Shown here piece by piece: positions 9,176-54,831 of a DNA stretch of 64,000 nt. The stretch is from Candidatus Iainarchaeum sp. (GTDB lineage Archaea > B1Sed10-29 > WALL01 > JAGHAM01). Made by a program: the position numbers and the translations under genes. Numbering within the stretch: position 1 is the first letter of the stretch; each line of letters starts with the position of its first letter. The notes under the pieces are model-generated. The model was given only the letters and a program-made list of their open reading frames with translations, did no database searches and was not told the DNA's origin. Location of the stretch: the NCBI GenBank assembly GCA_021161465.1, contig JAGHAM010000004.1, positions 3,035 through 67,034 of the forward strand. Direction: 5' to 3'.

Positions 9176-10273
9176 TTGTTGGTTTTTATGGTCTCCTGGA
9201 AGCTTTTCAGCATCGCTGGAATCGATATAAAACTGCATTGGACAACTTTGCTTCTCCTTGGATTGTTTCTTGTCCTCAGCGTTAACTCATTCTTGATACT
9301 CCTTCTCTTGTTTATTTCAATAACTTTCCATGAGCTTTCGCATTCGCTGGTTGCAAAAGGCAACGGAGTCAAAATCAGCCAGATAATACTTCTGCCTATC
9401 GGTGGGATGGCCGTGATGAAGAATGCAGTGATAGACCCAAAAGTGGAGTTCAAGATGGCCATAGCGGGGCCTTTGTTCAACTTTGCAGTTTGTGGCTTAA
9501 TCCTAATCGCAGCATATCTGTCCGGCAGCAGCAACCTGATTTACTCCATGGGTTACTGGAACGAGAGGCTGGCAGGCGATATACTACAGGACATTGGACC
9601 GATGATGGTTTCATCATTGTTCTGGCTCAACTTCTTGCTGGGTGCATTCAATCTATTCTTCCCTGCGCTGCCCTTGGATGGAGGCAGGGTGTTGAGGGCA
9701 CTGCTGGCGATGGTTATGGACTATGTCAAGGCAACCAGGATTGCAACAGTTATATCAATGTTCCTTACTATACTGCTATTCTTGGTGTCTTTAGTGAGCA
9801 TGAACCTGATACTGCTCTTGATATCTATTTTCATATTCTTTGGAGCAAGGTCTGAGATGGAGTTTGCTGTATCCCACCGGTTGCTTAGAAAGATTCCAGT
9901 TTCAAACTTAATGAGAAAAAATTTTCTCATGGTTGATGAGAACACGCCTTTGGATGCTCTGGTTGCCGATATGATTGCGTCGAGGTCACTGGTGGCTTTC
10001 TCAAAGGAGGGGAAGAACATAACTGCAGTTTCGATATACAAGATAGGAGAGGTTCCAAAACAAAGATGGGGGCGGATGAAGTTCAAGGACCTGGCTGTGG
10101 TGATAAAACCTGTAAGCCCTGGTACGCAGGTGGTGACGGCTCTGACACGTATGGGTAAAGAGGGTTTTGAGGCTTTGCCTGTGGTTGATAACTATCATGA
10201 AGTAGTTGGCTGCCTTTACAAGAGAGATATTGACACAATTCTGGAACTCCTGAAAGTGACAAAGCTTTCTTAG
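9176..10273 (+). CDS. site-2 protease (peptidase M50) with C-terminal CBS domain pair
   Basis: Transmembrane HExxH 'FHELSHSL', 'ALPLDGGRVL' LDG motif, and a C-terminal CBS pair. Confidence 0.75.
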   Translation: MLVFMVSWKLFSIAGIDIKLHWTTLLLLGLFLVLSVNSFLILLLLFISITFHELSHSLVAKGNGVKISQIILLPIGGMAVMKNAVIDPKVEFKMAIAGPLFNFAVCGLILIAAYLSGSSNLIYSMGYWNERLAGDILQDIGPMMVSSLFWLNFLLGAFNLFFPALPLDGGRVLRALLAMVMDYVKATRIATVISMFLTILLFLVSLVSMNLILLLISIFIFFGARSEMEFAVSHRLLRKIPVSNLMRKNFLMVDENTPLDALVADMIASRSLVAFSKEGKNITAVSIYKIGEVPKQRWGRMKFKDLAVVIKPVSPGTQVVTALTRMGKEGFEALPVVDNYHEVVGCLYKRDIDTILELLKVTKLS

Positions 10274-10327
10274 GCTTCTGCACGACAGACAGTTTTTTTA
10301 ATCCTGATTCTCACTAATAACTGGCAA

Positions 10328-10734
10328 GCTGGGGTGGCGGAAGTTCACGAGCAGGCAAGCTCGAGAAGTTCAGTTCACGAGCAGGCAAGCTCGAGAAACG
10401 CAATCCGGTTCAACGCGCCGGCCTCGAGTAGCCGCAAAATCGGCTAGCGCTTTAGGCGTCTCACGCTCCGCGTGAGAGCACCAGGTGTGGCCGTAAAATC
10501 GGTTCACGCGAACCGTAAAATCGGTTCACGCTTTGGGTGTTGCGCTACGCGCAAGCACCAGGCGGATGATTAAGGACTTAGTCTAAACCTAAGTGAAAAA
10601 TAACAGGTGCTAGACTTTGTCCAAGTGCCTTACGCTATATGTAAGGCAGGCATCCTGAAAGCCGGTGGGCGCAAGCCCGTGCAGGTTCAAACTGTTTCGT
10701 CTCCGTATGAAACAGGAAATTCCTGCCCCCAGCG
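10328..10734 (+). tRNA. tRNA-Ser(CGA) candidate interrupted by three introns (D-loop ~62 nt, anticodon 37/38 ~231 nt, T-loop 59/60 ~29 nt)
   Basis: Perfect 7-bp acceptor GCTGGGG/CCCCAGC with G73. U8-G9 and a 3-bp D-stem GCG/CGC with a GGTTCAA D-loop remnant. Anticodon stem CCGGC/GCCGG, loop CTCGAG|A. Type-II variable arm TGGGCGCAAGCCCGT (GNRA hairpin). T-arm GCAGG-TTCAAA[intron]T-CCTGC. Hand fold only. Confidence 0.45.
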
Positions 10735-10775
10735 TACCCTTCAACAAACATGTATACACTATAGTAACTATATAA

Positions 10776-11018
10776 TTGGCTATAGTTAAGGTGTTCTGTA
10801 TGGCGACGACTATACAGATAAGCGAAAAACTTAGAGAGGAATTAGCAGCTAGGAAGCTCTACGAAAAAGAGAGTTATGAAGAGGTCATCAATGACCTGCT
10901 TGAGGACACTATGGAACTTTCAGAAGAAACCAAAAGAGAGATAGAGCAAGCGAGGAAGGAGATAAAAGAAGGAAAAGTTTACGCCATGGCAGAGATTAAA
11001 AAGGAGCTAGGGTTGTAA
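10776..11018 (+). CDS. small antitoxin-like protein (80 aa)
   Basis: Small acidic coiled protein immediately upstream of a RelE/ParE-like reading frame (10 nt gap). Confidence 0.4.
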   Translation: MAIVKVFCMATTIQISEKLREELAARKLYEKESYEEVINDLLEDTMELSEETKREIEQARKEIKEGKVYAMAEIKKELGL

Positions 11019-12896: not shown

Positions 12897-15587
12897 ATGC
12901 CAAAAAACAAGAAGGATGTCATGGAACTTCTTAGAAAGAAACCAGACGAGTACTGGAAAGTGGACCTATTCGAAGAAAGGGGATTTAAGCGCCAGAAATG
13001 CCCTTCCTGTGGGACCTACTTCTGGAGCATTAACGAGAGGGAGAACTGCAGCAGCCCGCCGTGTGGAGACTACGAGTTCATAGGAAAGCCGCCAACCAAA
13101 AAGAGCTTCGACCTGATTAAGGCTTGGCGCGCGATAGAAAAATTCTTCGTCAAGAATGGCCATACCTCAATAAACCGTTATCCGATAATATGCAGATGGT
13201 TTCCCGGACTTTTCTTCACTGTGGCAAGTATAGTTGATTTCCAGCGCTCTGTTGGCGGGAAGCCAGTTTTTGAGTTTCCAGTTGACCCATTGGTCGTTCC
13301 TCAACCGTGCCTGCGTTTTAATGACATACCAAACATAGGCGTGTCCGGAAGGCATATGAGCAGCTTTACCATGGTTGGACAGCATACAAAGAAATACTGG
13401 AAGGACAGGTGCATTGAGCTCGACTATGAACTAATGACCAAAGTTTTTGGAATCCCAGAAGACAAAATTGTCTTCACTGAGGACATCTGGGTTGGACCAA
13501 GCGCATTTGGGTCATCACTGGAGTATCTGGTGGACGGTCTTGAGCTGGGCACGTCAGTATTTACATCGTTTTGGGGGACTCCTGATAATTTCAAGCCAAT
13601 GGATGAGAAAGTGATTGACATGGGTGCAGGCCTGGAGCGGTTTACCTGGATTTCACAAGGTACCCCAACTATATATGATGCTTCATACGGGCCCGTGATA
13701 GCAAAGCTGAAGAAGACTGTAGACTACGACAAAGAGCTTTTTACCAGGTATTCAAGGTTAAGCGGCAGGATAGATGCAGATAAGATGAACCCGCGGAAGG
13801 CATTTGAGGGGGTTGCAGGCAAGCTTGGTGTTTCAGTAAAAGAATTAGAGACGAGCATAGGACCACTACAGGCTGTGTATGCAATAACAGACCATGCTAA
13901 GGCGCTAACGTTTGCCATAGCGGATTCTGGGTTGCCGAGCAATGTTGGCGGTGGCTATAACCTTCGTGTCCTCTTAAGAAGAGCCTTGAACCTGATAAGC
14001 AAATATAATTTGGATTTCACGCTGAATGATGTTTGTGAGAAACATGCTAAATACCTAAAGCCGGTGTATCCATCCCTTGCAGAGAACCTTGATGAAATAA
14101 ATGAAATCCTTGATGTCGAGAAGAAGAAGTATGAAAGGTCTCTTGACAGGGCCAGGCGGGTCGCAAGGACGATAGTGTCTAAGTCAAGAAAAGTCCCCAA
14201 GGACAGGATGATACAGCTTTATGAGTCTCAGGGGGTCACTCCTGAGTTGCTGAAACAGGTTGCTGAGAGTGAAGGGAAGGACATAGAAATAGCTGAGGAC
14301 TTTTATTCAAGCTTGACTGCAAAACATTCGAAGGATGCTAGCGCTGAGTTCGTTGAGGTCGATGCTCCAAAGACTGTGAACCTGTATTATAGCCAGCCAG
14401 AGGCAAAGGAGTTTACTGCTAAGGTCTTGAAGAATTTCAAATACCAGGGCAAAAACTGGGTCATACTGGACAGGACATTATTCTATGCTGAGAAGGGTGG
14501 CCAGGACCATGACACTGGCTGGCTTGATGGGAAAAGAGTCATAGATGTTCAGGATATTGGTGGGGTTGTTCTTCACCAAGCTGAACCATTACCGGAAGGA
14601 AAAACTGTCAAGGGCCAAATAGATTGGGATAGGCGTATTATCCTTAGAAACCATCACTCTGCAACACACATAATCAACGGTGCGTGCCGCCGTGTGCTTG
14701 GTAACCATATCTGGCAGGCTGGTGCGTGGAAGGGGATAGACAAGGCCCATCTTGATATAACCCACTATGAGAACCTCTCACAGGAGCAGATAGACAGGAT
14801 TGAGAAGCTGGCGAATAAAGTAGTGCAGGAGAATAGACCTGTGACACAGAATCTAATGCCAAGGACAGAGGCTGAGAGCAAATATGGGTTTAGGCTTTAT
14901 CAGGGAGGAGCTGTACCTGCTGCAGAGCTTTACATAGTTGAGGTTAAGGACTGGGATGTTGAAGCTTGTGGGGGGACTCATGTCAGCAGGACCGGCGTTA
15001 TAAAGAAAATAGTGATTTCAGGAACAGAGAAAATCCAGGATGGCATTGTAAGGGTTCATTTCCTAGCTGGTGAACCAGCTTTGGAGTATCTAAAGAAAAT
15101 GGATTCTCTGCTTAAGGAAACTGCAGGCCTGCTTGGTGTTAAGGAGAGTAAAGTTCCAGAATCAGTTAAAAAGCTGTTGAGCAAGTGGAAGTCAAAGCGT
15201 AAGGAGTTTGAGAGGTTTTTGAAGAAGACGGCAGAGGAGAAGTCAAATGATATAAATCCAATTGAGTTAGATGGAGTCAAGGCGTATGTTTCTGTTGTTG
15301 AAGGGGTAGACATGCTTGGTTTAAGGGAGGTCTCCAAAAAGTTAGGCAACGATGACTCGTTTGTTTTCCTTGTAAGCGACAGGGGTTTTGTATTTGCAGC
15401 TGCTGGAAAGAATGTTATAGAGAGAGGCATAAATGCGGGGAAGATTGTTAGGGAAATAACTGGTTCCTATGGAGGAGGGGGTGGAGGACCACCCGAGAAA
15501 GGGGAAGGTATGATAAAGGATAGCACCTCTTTGGAGCAGTTGGTTGATGATGTAAAGGGTAAGCTTAGGAGGGCTTTGAATGGTTAG
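12897..15587 (+). CDS. alaS: alanyl-tRNA synthetase (archaeal type)
   Basis: 896 aa. Archaeal AlaRS N-terminal catalytic region, editing domain HxxxH/CxxxH ('HHSATHIINGACRRVLG', 'ACGGTHV'), and C-terminal DHHA1-like 'GGGGGGP' region. Confidence 0.9.
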   Translation: MPKNKKDVMELLRKKPDEYWKVDLFEERGFKRQKCPSCGTYFWSINERENCSSPPCGDYEFIGKPPTKKSFDLIKAWRAIEKFFVKNGHTSINRYPIICRWFPGLFFTVASIVDFQRSVGGKPVFEFPVDPLVVPQPCLRFNDIPNIGVSGRHMSSFTMVGQHTKKYWKDRCIELDYELMTKVFGIPEDKIVFTEDIWVGPSAFGSSLEYLVDGLELGTSVFTSFWGTPDNFKPMDEKVIDMGAGLERFTWISQGTPTIYDASYGPVIAKLKKTVDYDKELFTRYSRLSGRIDADKMNPRKAFEGVAGKLGVSVKELETSIGPLQAVYAITDHAKALTFAIADSGLPSNVGGGYNLRVLLRRALNLISKYNLDFTLNDVCEKHAKYLKPVYPSLAENLDEINEILDVEKKKYERSLDRARRVARTIVSKSRKVPKDRMIQLYESQGVTPELLKQVAESEGKDIEIAEDFYSSLTAKHSKDASAEFVEVDAPKTVNLYYSQPEAKEFTAKVLKNFKYQGKNWVILDRTLFYAEKGGQDHDTGWLDGKRVIDVQDIGGVVLHQAEPLPEGKTVKGQIDWDRRIILRNHHSATHIINGACRRVLGNHIWQAGAWKGIDKAHLDITHYENLSQEQIDRIEKLANKVVQENRPVTQNLMPRTEAESKYGFRLYQGGAVPAAELYIVEVKDWDVEACGGTHVSRTGVIKKIVISGTEKIQDGIVRVHFLAGEPALEYLKKMDSLLKETAGLLGVKESKVPESVKKLLSKWKSKRKEFERFLKKTAEEKSNDINPIELDGVKAYVSVVEGVDMLGLREVSKKLGNDDSFVFLVSDRGFVFAAAGKNVIERGINAGKIVREITGSYGGGGGGPPEKGEGMIKDSTSLEQLVDDVKGKLRRALNG

Positions 15588-28124: not shown

Positions 28125-28198
28125 AAAGAAATCACCATTTGTTCCAAATTTTGCAGTTTATTCTTAATAAACCTGCTTCGCTTACACGTAGTAAAAAG

Positions 28199-28415
28199 GG
28201 CCGCGGCCGGGAATTTCCTACCCAACTCACAATCGTGTGTGGGGTTAGGAGGGGCGCAGCCCCTCTTTTTGAACCCGGGCCAGGGGATTTCTGCAAGATG
28301 CAGGATTATCGTCTACCCCCCATAGATGGATTGCGTAGCAATCCTCTGGGGTTAGAAGGGGCGCAGCCCCTCTTTCCACAGTCCCCTATACTAGCCAGGC
28401 TATACAACCGCAGCC
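28199..28415 (-). tRNA. tRNA-His(GUG) candidate with anticodon-loop intron (~85 nt) and T-loop 59/60 intron (~56 nt)
   Basis: On the minus strand: G-1 + acceptor GCTGCGG/CCGCGGC with C73. U8. D-stem GTAT/GTAT (G-U) with D-loop AGCCTGGCTA. Anticodon stem GGGGA/TCCCC, loop CTGTGG|A (anticodon GTG). Variable TGGC. T-arm CCGGG-TTCAAA[intron]T-CCCGG. Confidence 0.5.
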
Positions 28416-28447
28416 ATAGGTTAATTTTTAGAACAAGGTTGTTTAAA

Positions 28448-28699
28448 TTATTTCTTAAGTTTCTTGTAGCTGTATTCTACTTCATAGTGTTTCATCAACT
28501 TTTCAGCAATTTTTTGACCAGATTCTATCAGAGGTTGCCCGTACCTTTTGCCTATCCTTGTGCGAAATTCAACTTTACCAATAAATCTATAATGTTCTGG
28601 AGCAACTTTAAGGGCTTCCTCTTTAGATAATCCCAGTTCTACCCTTTTTCCGAACATTCTTGCTGCTTTAAAATCGTGTTCTTTAATCTTGGATTTCAC
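28448..28699 (-). CDS. hypothetical small basic protein (83 aa)
   Basis: ORF only. Confidence 0.35.
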   Translation of the reverse strand: MKSKIKEHDFKAARMFGKRVELGLSKEEALKVAPEHYRFIGKVEFRTRIGKRYGQPLIESGQKIAEKLMKHYEVEYSYKKLKK

Positions 28700-47265: not shown

Positions 47266-48126
47266 ATGTTAACAGTGAAAAATATAATGTTGGTATTCAT
47301 GGACTTTAAAAAACTCAGAGAGAAGGCATTTAAGGAAACTATTAATGAAGTTCGCAAGGAGAAGAAAGAAACTGATAACCTTGTTGTCCAGGCTGTTGAG
47401 GCGATAGATGAGCTTGATGATATCACGAATATCATAGTTGAGAGAGTGAAGAACTGGTATGCCTTCCACTACCCAGAGCTTGAAAAGCTCGTGAAGGATC
47501 CTATGCTATACCTGCTTATAATAAAGGAGATTAAATCGAGAGACCAAATGCTCGCTGAAAAACTCGAGAGGTTTGTCGGGCCAGAACGGGCAAAAGCTAT
47601 TGCAGAGAAAGCTGTTGGGTCTATGGGGGCCGAGATTGTAGATAAAGACCTGCAAAGGCTTGTACATCTGGCAGAGCTTGGGATTCATGCAAGACAAGAA
47701 AGGGATGAGTTGGCCGATTACATAGAAGAGAGGACAAAAGAAATCACACCAAACCTTCATGCTATGCTTGGTGGTATGCTTGCTGCAAGGCTTATAGCGA
47801 GAGCAGGTTCACTTGAGCGGCTAGCTAAAATGCCTGCCAGCACCGTGCAGGTACTGGGCGCGGAGAAGGCATTGTTTGCACATCTGCGTAGGGGTGTTCC
47901 TTCTCCAAAGCATGGTTTGATATTCCAGTTCCCACAGATAATCCAGTCCCCAAAGAAGCAGCGTGGGAAGATATCCAGGGCGCTGGCTGGGAAGGTTTCC
48001 ATAGCAGCCAAGGAGGATTTCTTTGGAAATAAGGATATAAGCAAAGAACTAATTCAAAGCTTTGAAAAGCGGGTTGAGGCTATAAAGGAGGGAGCATCAA
48101 AGAAGAAGGGTGGCAAGCATGAATGA
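47266..48126 (+). CDS. Nop5/Nop56-family C/D box snoRNP protein (short archaeal form)
   Basis: Nop domain 'MLGGMLAARLIARAGSLERLAKMPASTVQVLGAEKALF...HGLIFQ'. True start probably the Met at about 47299. Confidence 0.8.
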   Translation: MLTVKNIMLVFMDFKKLREKAFKETINEVRKEKKETDNLVVQAVEAIDELDDITNIIVERVKNWYAFHYPELEKLVKDPMLYLLIIKEIKSRDQMLAEKLERFVGPERAKAIAEKAVGSMGAEIVDKDLQRLVHLAELGIHARQERDELADYIEERTKEITPNLHAMLGGMLAARLIARAGSLERLAKMPASTVQVLGAEKALFAHLRRGVPSPKHGLIFQFPQIIQSPKKQRGKISRALAGKVSIAAKEDFFGNKDISKELIQSFEKRVEAIKEGASKKKGGKHE

Positions 48127-48775
48127 AATCTTTCATAATGTTTTCCGTGAAGGCAACAAACTTTACACAAAGAACTTAGTTCCTGGGCAACGGGTTTACG
48201 GAGAAAAACTTTTGGAAACTGGCCGGGGAGAGCTGAGGGAATGGAACCCAAACAGGTCCAAGCTGGCTGCGGTGATACTAAAGGGCTTGAAAACGTTTCC
48301 ACTCAAGCAAGATTCAAAGGTGCTCTATCTCGGTGCTGCCCAGGGAACCACTGCATCACACGTTAGCGATGTAGTGGACAAAGGTTATGTTATCTGTGTT
48401 GATGTATCCTCTAAGGCTATGGAGGAGCTGATACCTCTGTGCGAATCCCGCCAGAATATGCTTCCGGTTCTTGGAGATGCTAACAGGCCTGGAGAGTATG
48501 CTAAGTATACTCTTGGAATTAATATGATTTATCAGGATGTTGCCCAACCAAACCAAGCTAAAATACTGCTAAAGAACGCTTCACTGCTTGATCCAGGGGA
48601 GTACGCTATCTTATGTATTAAAAGTAGGTCAATAGATGTTGCAGAAGACCCAAAGAAAATCATCAAAAAAGAGTTGGAATCCGTTTCTGATGGTTTTTTT
48701 GTGAGAGAGGTGATTGACCTCGAGCCATACCACATGGACCATGCACTAGCTGTGTGTGAGAAAAAACTTAGTTAG
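48110..48775 (+). CDS. flpA: fibrillarin-like rRNA/tRNA 2'-O-methyltransferase
   Basis: 'VLYLGAAQGTTASHVSDVV' SAM-binding motif of fibrillarin. Start overlaps the Nop5 stop. Confidence 0.85.
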   Translation: MASMNEIFHNVFREGNKLYTKNLVPGQRVYGEKLLETGRGELREWNPNRSKLAAVILKGLKTFPLKQDSKVLYLGAAQGTTASHVSDVVDKGYVICVDVSSKAMEELIPLCESRQNMLPVLGDANRPGEYAKYTLGINMIYQDVAQPNQAKILLKNASLLDPGEYAILCIKSRSIDVAEDPKKIIKKELESVSDGFFVREVIDLEPYHMDHALAVCEKKLS

Positions 48776-49737
48776 GCCAGGTTATAGTCAATTATGCGCT
48801 TCATCATCACGAAGGGCTGTGCTCCACCAATCAAGCTATCACCGATGTAAAAGGAGGGGGCTACTATGGCTCCTTCTTTTATTGCCAGCTGGTAGTCTCC
48901 CTGTACTGTGCTTACCTTTTCCCCGTTTCCAAAGCATGTGTTGAACTCTTCCATATCGAGACCAACCTTCATAGCATAGCTCTTTAAGTCTTCGTCAGAC
49001 AGTGCATCCTTCAAAGATTCTGGATCCCAGTTATCATAAAGCACATCATGATATTCCCAGAATTTACCTTGGTCATAAGCGCATTCTGCTGCCTCTGCTG
49101 CCCTTTCTGACCTAGGGTGTATGCTTGTGAGCGGGAAGTTGATGAATACATATTTTGCCTTGCCAGTGTCAACATAATCTTTTATGATTTTCTTGTAGGT
49201 TGTTCTGTAGAAGTTCCTGCAGTATGCACAGTCGAAATCACCAAATTCAACTATCGTGAGCTTTGCTGACATATTTCCCTTTATGGGCTGTCCATCAAGG
49301 TTTATCTTCGATGGCGACAGTTCAGGTGTCATTAAAACAAAGTATATCTTTTCTATCTTTAGGGTTCTGTCATCCACCCTGACTTCTATAATCTTTAGGC
49401 CTTCGTTTGTTTTAGCTTCATAGTCTACAAGCCATTTGCCATTAGCGAAATTGTATCTGGTATTTTTTATTGAACCGCCGTATCTAAGGCGTGTCAGAGT
49501 ACTTAGCACAAGATGGTTCACATCATTATTTGTCCTTATTGGAAGGATTATGTTGGAAACAGACGAGGAGGGCACATTCATGTTGCATACCCTCTCCTCT
49601 TTTAGCACTTGACTGGTTCCAGCAAGTATGCCAATCATCAGGGTTGCTGAGATAAATACAATTATCAAATACCATGTTCCCGGAGGTATATCCCATGGAC
49701 ATTCTTCGCTCAGCAACTTCTTGAGCTTTTCCATCAT
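48772..49737 (-). CDS. membrane-anchored thioredoxin-fold DsbA-like oxidoreductase
   Basis: 'FGDFDCAYCRNFY' CxxC active site, with an N-terminal TM helix. The ORF-track N-terminal extension to 49818 overlaps the tRNA 3' exon and is probably not translated (start at 'MMEKLKK'). Confidence 0.6.
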   Translation of the reverse strand: MMEKLKKLLSEECPWDIPPGTWYLIIVFISATLMIGILAGTSQVLKEERVCNMNVPSSSVSNIILPIRTNNDVNHLVLSTLTRLRYGGSIKNTRYNFANGKWLVDYEAKTNEGLKIIEVRVDDRTLKIEKIYFVLMTPELSPSKINLDGQPIKGNMSAKLTIVEFGDFDCAYCRNFYRTTYKKIIKDYVDTGKAKYVFINFPLTSIHPRSERAAEAAECAYDQGKFWEYHDVLYDNWDPESLKDALSDEDLKSYAMKVGLDMEEFNTCFGNGEKVSTVQGDYQLAIKEGAIVAPSFYIGDSLIGGAQPFVMMKRIIDYNLA

Positions 49738-49757
49738 GTTATTACTCCATTTGTAGG

Positions 49758-50188
49758 TGGGCGCGAAGGGACTTTCCACCCCAATAGGGGGTTTGAGGCG
49801 CACCAACCTTCCCTGCACACATGGATTTGATAACCTTCTATCTCCATGCAGGTACCCTCTGCAGGGTTAGAGGTTCGTCCAGACCATAAGTCTAAACGTG
49901 TGCACCCTTTTCTTCCTGCGTATCGGGTGGCCTCGTGCCACCCCTGCAGGTTTAGAGATTCGTTCTAGACTGTAGGTCTAGAACGGGTGCAACCCTCCTG
50001 GTGCAACCAATCTTCCTACAATCGGGATACGGATGATATTCCATCCCCATGCAGGTTTAGAAAGGGTGCAACCCTCCTGGTGCAACCAATCTTTCGAACC
50101 CTCGGCCTCAGGTTATCCTCAGCCACGCTGAGTGTACCAGAACGGGCCTTATAAGACCTGCGCTCTGACCTGGCTAAGCTACGCGCCC
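49758..50188 (-). tRNA. tRNA-Ile(UAU)? candidate with anticodon intron (~35 nt) and very long (~320 nt) T-loop 59/60 intron
   Basis: Minus strand: acceptor GGGCGCG/CGCGCCC with A73. UA. Canonical D-arm GCTT-AGCCAGGTCA-GAGC. Anticodon stem CAGGT/ACCTG, loop CTTATA|A. Variable AGGCC. T-arm GAGGG-TTCGAA[intron]T-CCCTT. The intron carries two 28-nt direct repeats. Confidence 0.4.
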
Positions 50189-54664: not shown

Positions 54665-54831
54665 GGACGCGTAGCCTAGCCAGGATTGTTCCGTGGCAAC
54701 AGCTCATGGAATCCTGATAGGGCACCGGCCTTCTAAGCCGGCTATCGGGGGTTCAAAATAAGGAGGAGGGACACGTTCCCTCCTCCCTTATAAGCCCTTC
54801 TCCTTTGCGAGTGAGTTTCCCTCCGCGTCCG
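54665..54831 (+). tRNA. tRNA-Arg(UCU) with D-loop intron (~32 nt) and T-loop 59/60 intron (~60 nt)
   Basis: Acceptor GGACGCG/CGCGTCC with G73. U8 A9. D-stem GCCT/GGGC, D-loop AGCCAGGA[intron]TA. Anticodon stem CCGGC/GCCGG, loop CTTCTAA. Variable CTATC. T-arm GGGGG-TTCAAA[intron with 12-bp hairpin]T-CCCTC. Confidence 0.6.

Follow-up and report, generated by a model that had tools for sequence, protein, structure and literature searches.

Archaeal tRNA introns usually measure tens of nucleotides (nt); the introns of 231 nt and about 321 nt described below are much longer. Up to three bulge-helix-bulge (BHB) introns per tRNA gene are known from Thermoproteales, for example Pyrobaculum calidifontis (PMC4033280, PMC8450103). 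DPANN lineages are reported to carry heavily disrupted tRNA genes and variants of the archaeal splicing endonuclease EndA with broadened specificity (PMC5829648, PMC3239211); some archaeal endonucleases cleave relaxed motifs with bulges of 1-4 nt, and position 59/60 is a documented non-canonical intron site in ARMAN-2 (PMC3239211); further disrupted tRNA genes, still undetected, are expected in DPANN genomes (PMC3239211, PMC5829648). In Haloferax volcanii, the 103-nt intron at position 37/38 of tRNA-Trp harbors a box C/D small RNA (sRNA) (Clouet d'Orval 2001, summarised in PMC7714728). Here we describe a locus in a 64-kb stretch of DNA, referred to as the window, to which all coordinates refer unless a relative is named. 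Positions 10328-10734 of its forward strand (407 nt) constitute a tRNA-Ser(CGA) gene of Candidatus Diapherotrites (DPANN), composed of four exons and three introns of 61, 231, and 29 nt, very probably BHB-type and protein-spliced.

Because multi-intron tRNAs, the disruption of tRNA genes in DPANN, 59/60 introns, and relaxed BHB motifs are all established, this gene belongs to a known kind. It resembles the genes of Thermoproteales in having up to three protein-spliced introns at canonical and non-canonical sites with relaxed BHB motifs, in being missed by simple tRNA finders, and in its company, a tRNA-His gene of the same window in which a shared module of about 28 nt is a sign of intron duplication or transposition. 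It differs from them in its host, a mesophile-like Diapherotrites member (43% GC) of the DPANN rather than a crenarchaeote, and in intron sizes (231 nt in tRNA-Ser, about 321 nt in tRNA-Ile) that appear to result from internal tandem duplication of hairpin modules. The superphylum, the T-loop intron at 59/60, and relaxed BHB motifs are common to this gene and to disrupted tRNA genes of ARMAN-2 (Micrarchaeota) and further DPANN members (PMC3239211, PMC5829648), whereas the ARMAN-2 introns tested measure 13 and 25 nt, and none of the genes cited there has more than two (PMC3239211). No Diapherotrites tRNA set is apparent in the analyses as far as the available portions of Fujishima 2011 (PMC3239211) and Kaneta 2018 (PMC5829648) go. 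Less usual are the intron sizes (231 and about 321 nt), growth by tandem duplication, a degenerate splice motif found in two lineages, and a series from zero to three introns at one locus.

Upstream of the gene is an M50/CBS protease gene (9176-10273, forward strand), downstream a small open reading frame (ORF) that starts at about 10812; the gap between the two measures 530 nt. Its parts are listed below; L numbers denote loci of relatives.

10293-10302, forward strand: TATA-like T/A-rich box TTTTTTTAAT, 25 nt before tRNA position 1; a comparable box is present at six syntenic loci.
10328-10342, forward strand: exon 1; acceptor 5' strand GCUGGGG, U8 and G9, D-stem 5' strand GCG, start of the D-loop GAA; identical or nearly so in L001, L002, L133, L135, and L137, where it is uninterrupted.
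10343-10403, forward strand: intron 1; 61 nt, in the D-loop, at about 15/16.
10404-10428, forward strand: exon 2; remainder of the D-loop UCCGGUUCAA, D-stem 3' strand CGC, G26, anticodon stem 5' strand CCGGC, C32 and U33, anticodon CGA (10425-27), G37.
10429-10659, forward strand: intron 2; 231 nt, at the canonical position 37/38.
10660-10691, forward strand: exon 3; A38, anticodon stem 3' strand GCCGG, variable arm GGGC-GCAA-GCCC, T-stem 5' strand GCAGG, T-loop UUCAAA.
10692-10720, forward strand: intron 3; 29 nt, in the T-loop, at 59/60.
10721-10734, forward strand: exon 4; U60, T-stem 3' strand CCUGC, acceptor 3' strand CCCCAGC, G73.

When joined, the four exons give an 86-nt RNA that ARAGORN (CCA appended) calls as a clean class-II tRNA-Ser(cga); the same call was returned for 2184 combinations in a scan of intron-boundary combinations. 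The acceptor stem pairs 10328-34 with 10727-33 over 7 bp and is followed by G73 at 10734. The D-stem GCG/CGC has 3 bp, the D-loop reads GAAUCCGGUUCAA, the anticodon loop CU-CGA-GA, and the T-arm GCAGG-UUCAAAU-CCUGC; the conserved U8, A14, G18G19, and U33 and the T-loop region GUUCAAAU are all present. A long variable arm, G73, a 3-bp D-stem, and a serine anticodon together mark a class-II tRNA-Ser, and intronless relatives share all four. CCA is not encoded; UACCC follows directly after 10734. The exons have a GC content of 0.71 and the introns of 0.40-0.59; the island as a whole has 0.55 against 0.434 across the window. The minimum free energy of the entire region is -184 kcal/mol (z = -9.3), a value equalled by none of 100 shuffles.

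The unspliced gene escapes the usual tools. ARAGORN and Rfam (gathering score) detected no tRNA anywhere in the unspliced 64-kb window; ARAGORN with intron options (-i, -i0,300, -ps) returned nothing on the raw region, and with lowered thresholds on the whole window only implausible calls. Rfam at E <= 10 over 10200-10850 gave nothing relevant, only two matches to 18-nt hairpins (E about 1-5). That the Rfam tRNA model misses the gene is expected, because the gene is interrupted. An earlier examination of the letters alone (the sequence-only reading) had proposed a tRNA-Ser(CGA) with three introns in a GC-rich island, with a perfect 7-bp acceptor and G73, a type-II variable arm closed by a GNRA hairpin, and a 3-bp D-stem with a D-loop remnant. 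Each of these points is borne out by the spliced exons, by syntenic orthologues that carry zero to two of the same introns, and by cloverleaf covariation; and on the two outcomes that it had named as fatal, no other Rfam family claims the region at E <= 10 and the exons do assemble.

Contigs of relatives were reached via alanyl-tRNA synthetase (AlaRS) and M50 proteins. The AlaRS gene of the window (12897-15587, 2 kb downstream of the tRNA gene) encodes a product 100% identical to a protein of 'MAG: Candidatus Diapherotrites archaeon' (MAG, metagenome-assembled genome), which places the host among the DPANN archaea. Five relatives carry a tRNA-Ser(CGA) gene directly downstream of the orthologous M50/CBS protease gene, with the following introns.

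L137: no intron; anticodon loop CUCGAGA.
L135/L136: one intron; 19 nt at 37/38.
L133: one intron; 56 nt at 37/38.
L001: one intron; 61 nt at 37/38.
L002: two introns; 56 nt at 37/38 and 22 nt at 59/60.
Window: three introns; 61 nt in the D-loop, 231 nt at 37/38, 29 nt at 59/60.

Across the six syntenic loci the intron count therefore runs 0, 1, 1, 1, 2, 3, and the per-column identity of the exons is about 91%. When the six are aligned with MAFFT, exon sequence matches up over its full length, and the surplus of the window forms three clean insertion blocks; the orthologous genes measure 85-164 nt, and what they lack is exactly the proposed introns. A TTTTAA-type box lies 23-27 nt before G1 at all six loci (window, L001, L002, L133, L135, and L137); its position and conservation mark this box as the probable TATA element of an archaeal tRNA promoter. 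No tRNA gene follows the M50-type protease homologues of L132, where the gap is only 56 nt, or of L129/L130, where it is 126 nt; the L131 contig stops right after the protease gene, and the L134 protease has another neighbor. A metagenome scan with the 18-mer CAACGCGCCGGYCTCGAR gave 120 hits, all of them chance matches within high-GC bacterial genes.

Covariation was assessed on eight sequences, either spliced or free of introns; two of the intron-free ones are Iainarchaeum-type tRNA-Ser(UGA) genes that a genome scan had returned. All 24 cloverleaf pairs show standard pairing in every sequence (192/192 cells), and 10 of them changed on both sides in a compensatory manner. In a control with the partner slid by 1-3 columns, at most one pair changed on both sides, and none of 500 shuffles matched the observed percentage of paired cells, number of both-sided changes, and covariation score. 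The comparison settles which gene this is and where its exons and introns meet.

The boundary of the anticodon intron at 37/38 is fixed, because intronless relatives show a G37-A38 loop (CUCGAG|A). Splice registers that would yield the anticodon UGA (33/34), or junctions from 34/35 to 36/37, were rejected; they have no BHB-like flank, and intronless relatives have CUCGAGA. The intron, put at about 231 nt by the sequence-only reading, measures exactly that, and the following elements were distinguished in it.

10430-45, forward strand: hairpin 1, UAGCCGCAAAAUCGGCUA.
10459-77, forward strand: unit resembling the ancestral hairpin 2, within the anticodon intron.
From 10491 and from 10513, forward strand: two more copies of hairpin 1, 19 nt each, 100% identical, 22 nt apart.
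10536-59, forward strand: second hairpin 2, within the anticodon intron.
10565-10659, forward strand: AU-rich three-way-junction module, 95 nt, GC 0.40.

The three CCGYAAAAUCGG hairpins noticed from the letters alone start at 10432, 10491, and 10513, and the 8-bp stem likewise noticed is UCUCACGC/GCGUGAGA (10459-66/10470-77). The initial 56 nt or so, comprising hairpin 1 and the second hairpin, align with the entire introns of L001, L002, and L133, and hairpin 1 shows a compensatory change between loci (CCG/CGG vs CUG/CAG). The unit of hairpin 1 and hairpin 2 is duplicated (28 nt at 79% identity). Tandem Repeats Finder at its thresholds reported no tandem array; the intron repeats were found by a separate repeat search. 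Fold z-scores are -5.9 for the anticodon intron and -4.55 for the 95-nt module, a three-way junction. The module has no counterpart in L001, L002, L133, L135, or L137, and BLAST against the window and searches of phages and viral contigs gave no copies of the introns or the module elsewhere. By comparison of the loci, the anticodon intron is an expanded form of the intron of about 56-61 nt that three relatives carry; its own hairpins were copied in tandem, and a 95-nt AU-rich module was added.

The D-loop intron is built of a 26-nt unit present twice at 100% identity (10342-67 and 10372-97; spacing 30 nt), each copy forming a CGAGC-AGGCAA-GCUCG hairpin (10348-63, 10378-93). This pair of hairpins had been placed in the anticodon intron by the sequence-only reading; they exist as described, but both lie inside the D-loop intron. 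The intron is absent from all five orthologues and has a fold z-score of -4.4. The simplest reading is that the D-loop and anticodon introns both grew by recent local tandem duplication. Such duplication of an ancestral intron explains the repeats better than the functional intron RNA they had earlier been taken to suggest; we saw no evidence for a function of the intron repeats, and the introns are most likely non-functional passengers. The heptamer GUUCACG stands at 10343, 10373, 10502, and 10524, that is, twice in each of the D-loop and anticodon introns, doubled by the duplications; elsewhere in the 64 kb it occurs only five times on both strands. The shared heptamer may hint at a common origin of the two introns, or may be a coincidence.

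For the scoring of splice motifs, the BHB was placed in the orientation accepted for archaeal pre-tRNAs, in which the 5' exon and the intron each end with a strand of the central helix (H) followed by two bulge nucleotides. The T-loop intron is near-canonical: its outer helix is the T-stem (5 bp), its inner helix has 8 bp, H is UUC:GAA plus A.G (3/4 pairs), and the bulges AA|C and AU|U have 3 nt each. At 59/60, L002 and two tRNA-Ser genes of Aenigmatarchaeota, L003 and L008, have introns as well, with perfect H helices. The D-loop intron has a relaxed BHB-like motif, with H = GCG:CGC (3/4 pairs), bulges AA|G and AA|U, an inner helix UUC.CGAG/CUCG.GAA (3 + 4 bp), and an outer helix of 1 bp only.

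Several points weigh against three BHB-type, protein-spliced introns as drawn here. The central helix of the anticodon intron, CUCG vs CCUG, has 2/4 pairs and lacks the canonical 4 bp. Cloverleaf-constrained folds give only a shifted 3-bp helix, of U33-C34-G35 with UGA at 10656-58. At the level of sequence, the boundary of the D-loop intron is ambiguous within 2 nt; its three registers give one and the same product, and BHB-like support exists for one of them only. Finally, no EndA or RtcB gene is present among the 40 ORFs of the window scanned against Pfam. As regards the anticodon intron, L001 likewise has a central helix of 2/4 pairs, both introns end in UCCUGAA|A, and the shifted one-register helix is predicted in the two alike, with the 3' cut opposite C32, inside a bulge of 2 nt, and the 5' cut in a 3-nt stretch beside the conserved hairpin 1. 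Central helices of 4/4 pairs occur in L133, L002, L135, L003, and L008 (e.g., CUCG:CGAG with bulges AG|U and CA|A). Cleavage of the anticodon-intron site by the host enzyme would, on these predicted folds, take place at the relaxed motif.

How the gene is transcribed, which enzymes act on it, in what order they cut, and what becomes of the introns are matters of proposal; the pathway would be as follows. Transcription driven by the TATA-like box about 25 nt upstream would give a precursor of at least 407 nt; EndA would cut the three intron-exon motifs; an RtcB-type ligase would join the four exons into the 86-nt class-II tRNA; CCA would be added post-transcriptionally; and the mature tRNA would decode UCG codons.

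Three other tRNA genes of the window, read by eye in GC-rich islands and checked by splicing and ARAGORN, are interrupted as well.

54665-54831, forward strand: tRNA-Arg(UCU); a D-loop intron of about 29 nt, a T-loop intron (59/60) of about 60 nt.
28415-28199, reverse strand: tRNA-His(GUG) with encoded G-1; introns of about 85 nt at 37/38 and about 55 nt at 59/60.
50188-49758, reverse strand: tRNA-Ile(UAU)-like gene; introns of about 34 nt at 37/38 and about 321 nt in the T-loop.

ARAGORN called tRNA-Arg(tct) in 1503 spliced boundary combinations. Both introns of the tRNA-His gene open with one module of about 28 nt, AAGAGGGGCUGCGCCCCUYCUAACCCCA, and this sharing suggests duplication or transposition of an intron within one gene. 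Within the tRNA-Ile intron of about 321 nt, GAUUGGUUGCACCAGGAGGGUUGCACCC occurs two times and CUAAACCUGCA three times, once with a single mismatch (CUAACCCUGCA). A 163-aa ORF (28139-28630) that overlaps the tRNA-His gene has no Pfam match and is probably spurious. The ORF listed at 48772-49818 (reverse strand) overlaps the 3' end of the tRNA-Ile gene; because of this overlap, the true start of this thioredoxin-like gene is probably an ATG near 49737. As the tRNA-Arg, -His, and -Ile genes are interrupted too, the host must splice such introns.

The alternative that survives best concerns the 231-nt insert, which may consist of two nested or adjacent BHB introns removed in order; we consider this unlikely. 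It would make four introns in one tRNA gene, exceeding the documented maximum of three. The inner intron would be the 95-nt module (10565-10659), bounded by CAGG (10559-62):CCUG (10654-57) with 3-nt bulges CG|G and AA|A; its removal would put CAGG beside A38, and the outer intron of 136 nt (10429-10564) would then have a 3/4 helix with CUCG, the quality of the other two introns of the gene. A BHB scan does return this motif (p = 10564, q = 10660, H 4/4, inner helix 3 bp), and the module is distinct from its surroundings (GC 0.40 vs 0.59), confined to the window genome, and folds independently. In L001, an analogous UGGG...CCUG would leave CUCG:UGGG, 4/4 with two G-U pairs, and archaeal tRNA introns that lie close together are known to be removed in order (PMC8450103). 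The CAGG:CCUG helix is nevertheless improbable, because GGAUG (10564-68):CAUCC (10651-55) competes with it: the former has a probability near 0 in the partition function, the latter of about 0.8 under cloverleaf constraints. Moreover, the outer helix of the inner motif has 1 bp only, the inner helix of the L001 analogue has 0 bp, and 4-nt complementarities are common when G-U pairs are allowed, with five alternative partners in the window intron alone. The wider proposition, that nested introns of 136 and 95 nt occur here and that in the Diapherotrites lineage hairpin modules next to the splice sites are duplicated in tandem, so that tRNA introns grow to 230-320 nt, is taken to be equally doubtful.

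That the locus is a decaying tRNA-Ser(CGA) pseudogene, filled with accumulated insertions and no longer processed, is very improbable. The degenerate motif of the anticodon intron (H 2/4), the very recent intron duplications with copies 100% identical, and the failure of standard tools to find the gene would all suit such decay. The exons, however, retain 24 of 24 cloverleaf pairs and all conserved tertiary positions; the insertions stand exactly at intron sites of orthologues or of other DPANN tRNAs and have BHB-like flanks; the relaxed 3' junction recurs in L001, a relative with an AlaRS of only 67% identity; and the promoter-like box is conserved. The tRNA-His gene and two further tRNA genes of the window, similarly interrupted, cannot all be dead, and reliance of the host on splicing such introns argues against a pseudogene.

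Not supported, and a small step less probable still, is a box C/D guide RNA in the anticodon intron, a possibility raised by the sequence-only reading; as in Haloferax tRNA-Trp, such an RNA would assemble with L7Ae, Nop5, and fibrillarin for 2'-O-methylation. Guides of archaeal sRNAs are about 12 nt long. The elements from which it was built are real: AUGAUUA (10566-72) fits RUGAUGA at 6/7 positions, CUGA (10655-58) stands at the intron's 3' end, the fold of the 95-nt module is stable, and the window encodes a Nop-domain protein (47266-48126; Pfam 2.5e-64) and fibrillarin (48110-48775; Pfam 2.6e-74). The two boxes carry no statistical weight, however. They occur at chance level, because the background on this strand of the window is 4.2 C-like boxes and 4.5 CUGA per kb, so that about 1.7 and 1.8 are expected in 407 nt and one each was seen. 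They lie 82 nt apart, and no C' or D' boxes were found in the 407 nt; the 12 nt before CUGA, which match the mature tRNA at only 7/12 positions, form an arm of a perfect 9-bp hairpin. The intron of L001 has no C box and keeps the CUGA, which is paired there with the strand of the anticodon; the 95-nt module with the C-like box is absent from 5/5 orthologues; and Rfam has no relevant match at E <= 10. Haloferax tRNA-Trp and this gene are alike in a long 37/38 intron in an archaeal tRNA and in a host with Nop5 and fibrillarin. The Haloferax intron has a full set of C, D', C', and D boxes with guides to C34 and U39 of its own tRNA, whereas the window intron has none beyond chance.

That the island is some other structured non-coding RNA (RNase P RNA, signal recognition particle (SRP) RNA, or another) with coincidental tRNA-like ends is effectively refuted: RNase P and SRP RNAs, too, typically have a length of about 400 nt, high GC, and paired ends, but no Rfam family matches in the window at gathering score, and the orthologues, at only 85-164 nt, lose exactly the proposed introns, which is incompatible with a functional RNA of 400 nt. 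A pairing of GGAAGUUC...GGAAAUUCC, superficially like the P4 helix of RNase P RNA and noticed by eye, was dropped in view of the Rfam null and the shrinkage of the orthologues.

Long introns also occur in tRNA-Ser genes of other DPANN hosts. The Aenigmatarchaeota MAGs L003 (6900-7210) and L008 (reverse strand) carry tRNA-Ser(UGA) genes with 37/38 introns of 150 and 126 nt, whose central helix is perfect (CUUG:CAGG or CUUG:CAAG), and introns at 59/60 of 63 and 38 nt, so the window genome is not alone in having a long 37/38 intron in tRNA-Ser. These genes and that of the window are alike in encoding class-II serine tRNAs with long 37/38 introns and 59/60 introns. They differ in that the Aenigmatarchaeota genes have perfect 4-bp central helices in both introns, no D-loop intron, a UGA anticodon, and no similarity in intron sequence.

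No new kind of system is revealed by the interrupted tRNA-Ser(CGA) gene, and its practical value lies in annotation: at least four tRNA genes (Ser, His, Ile, and Arg) lie in 64 kb, none of them reported by ARAGORN or Rfam. This is the 'missing tRNA' problem flagged earlier for DPANN (PMC5829648), and it affects inferences on MAG completeness and codon usage. For intron evolution, a single syntenic locus with 0, 1, 2, and 3 introns and perfect tandem duplication is a convenient system in which to follow gain and growth. For enzyme specificity, the relaxed anticodon-intron motif of two lineages offers a substrate with which the tolerance of a DPANN endonuclease can be set against the 3-4-3 BHB rule.

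The sequence just 3' of the tRNA gene differs between relatives and contains small toxin-antitoxin-like genes: ParE and a weak DUF7557 match in L133 (2229-2705), and DUF4258 and an MqsA-like gene in L002 (2595-3223). In the window, a 68-aa ORF (10812-11018, forward strand) has no Pfam match and starts like the DUF7557-like gene of L133. The region beside the tRNA gene may be an integration hotspot. In L135, at about 2740-2900, the final 18 nt of the tRNA and its trailer (ATCCTGCCCCCAGCGCTC) recur about 170 nt downstream of the gene; the recurrence resembles the att-type direct repeat of an element that integrated at the 3' end of the tRNA.

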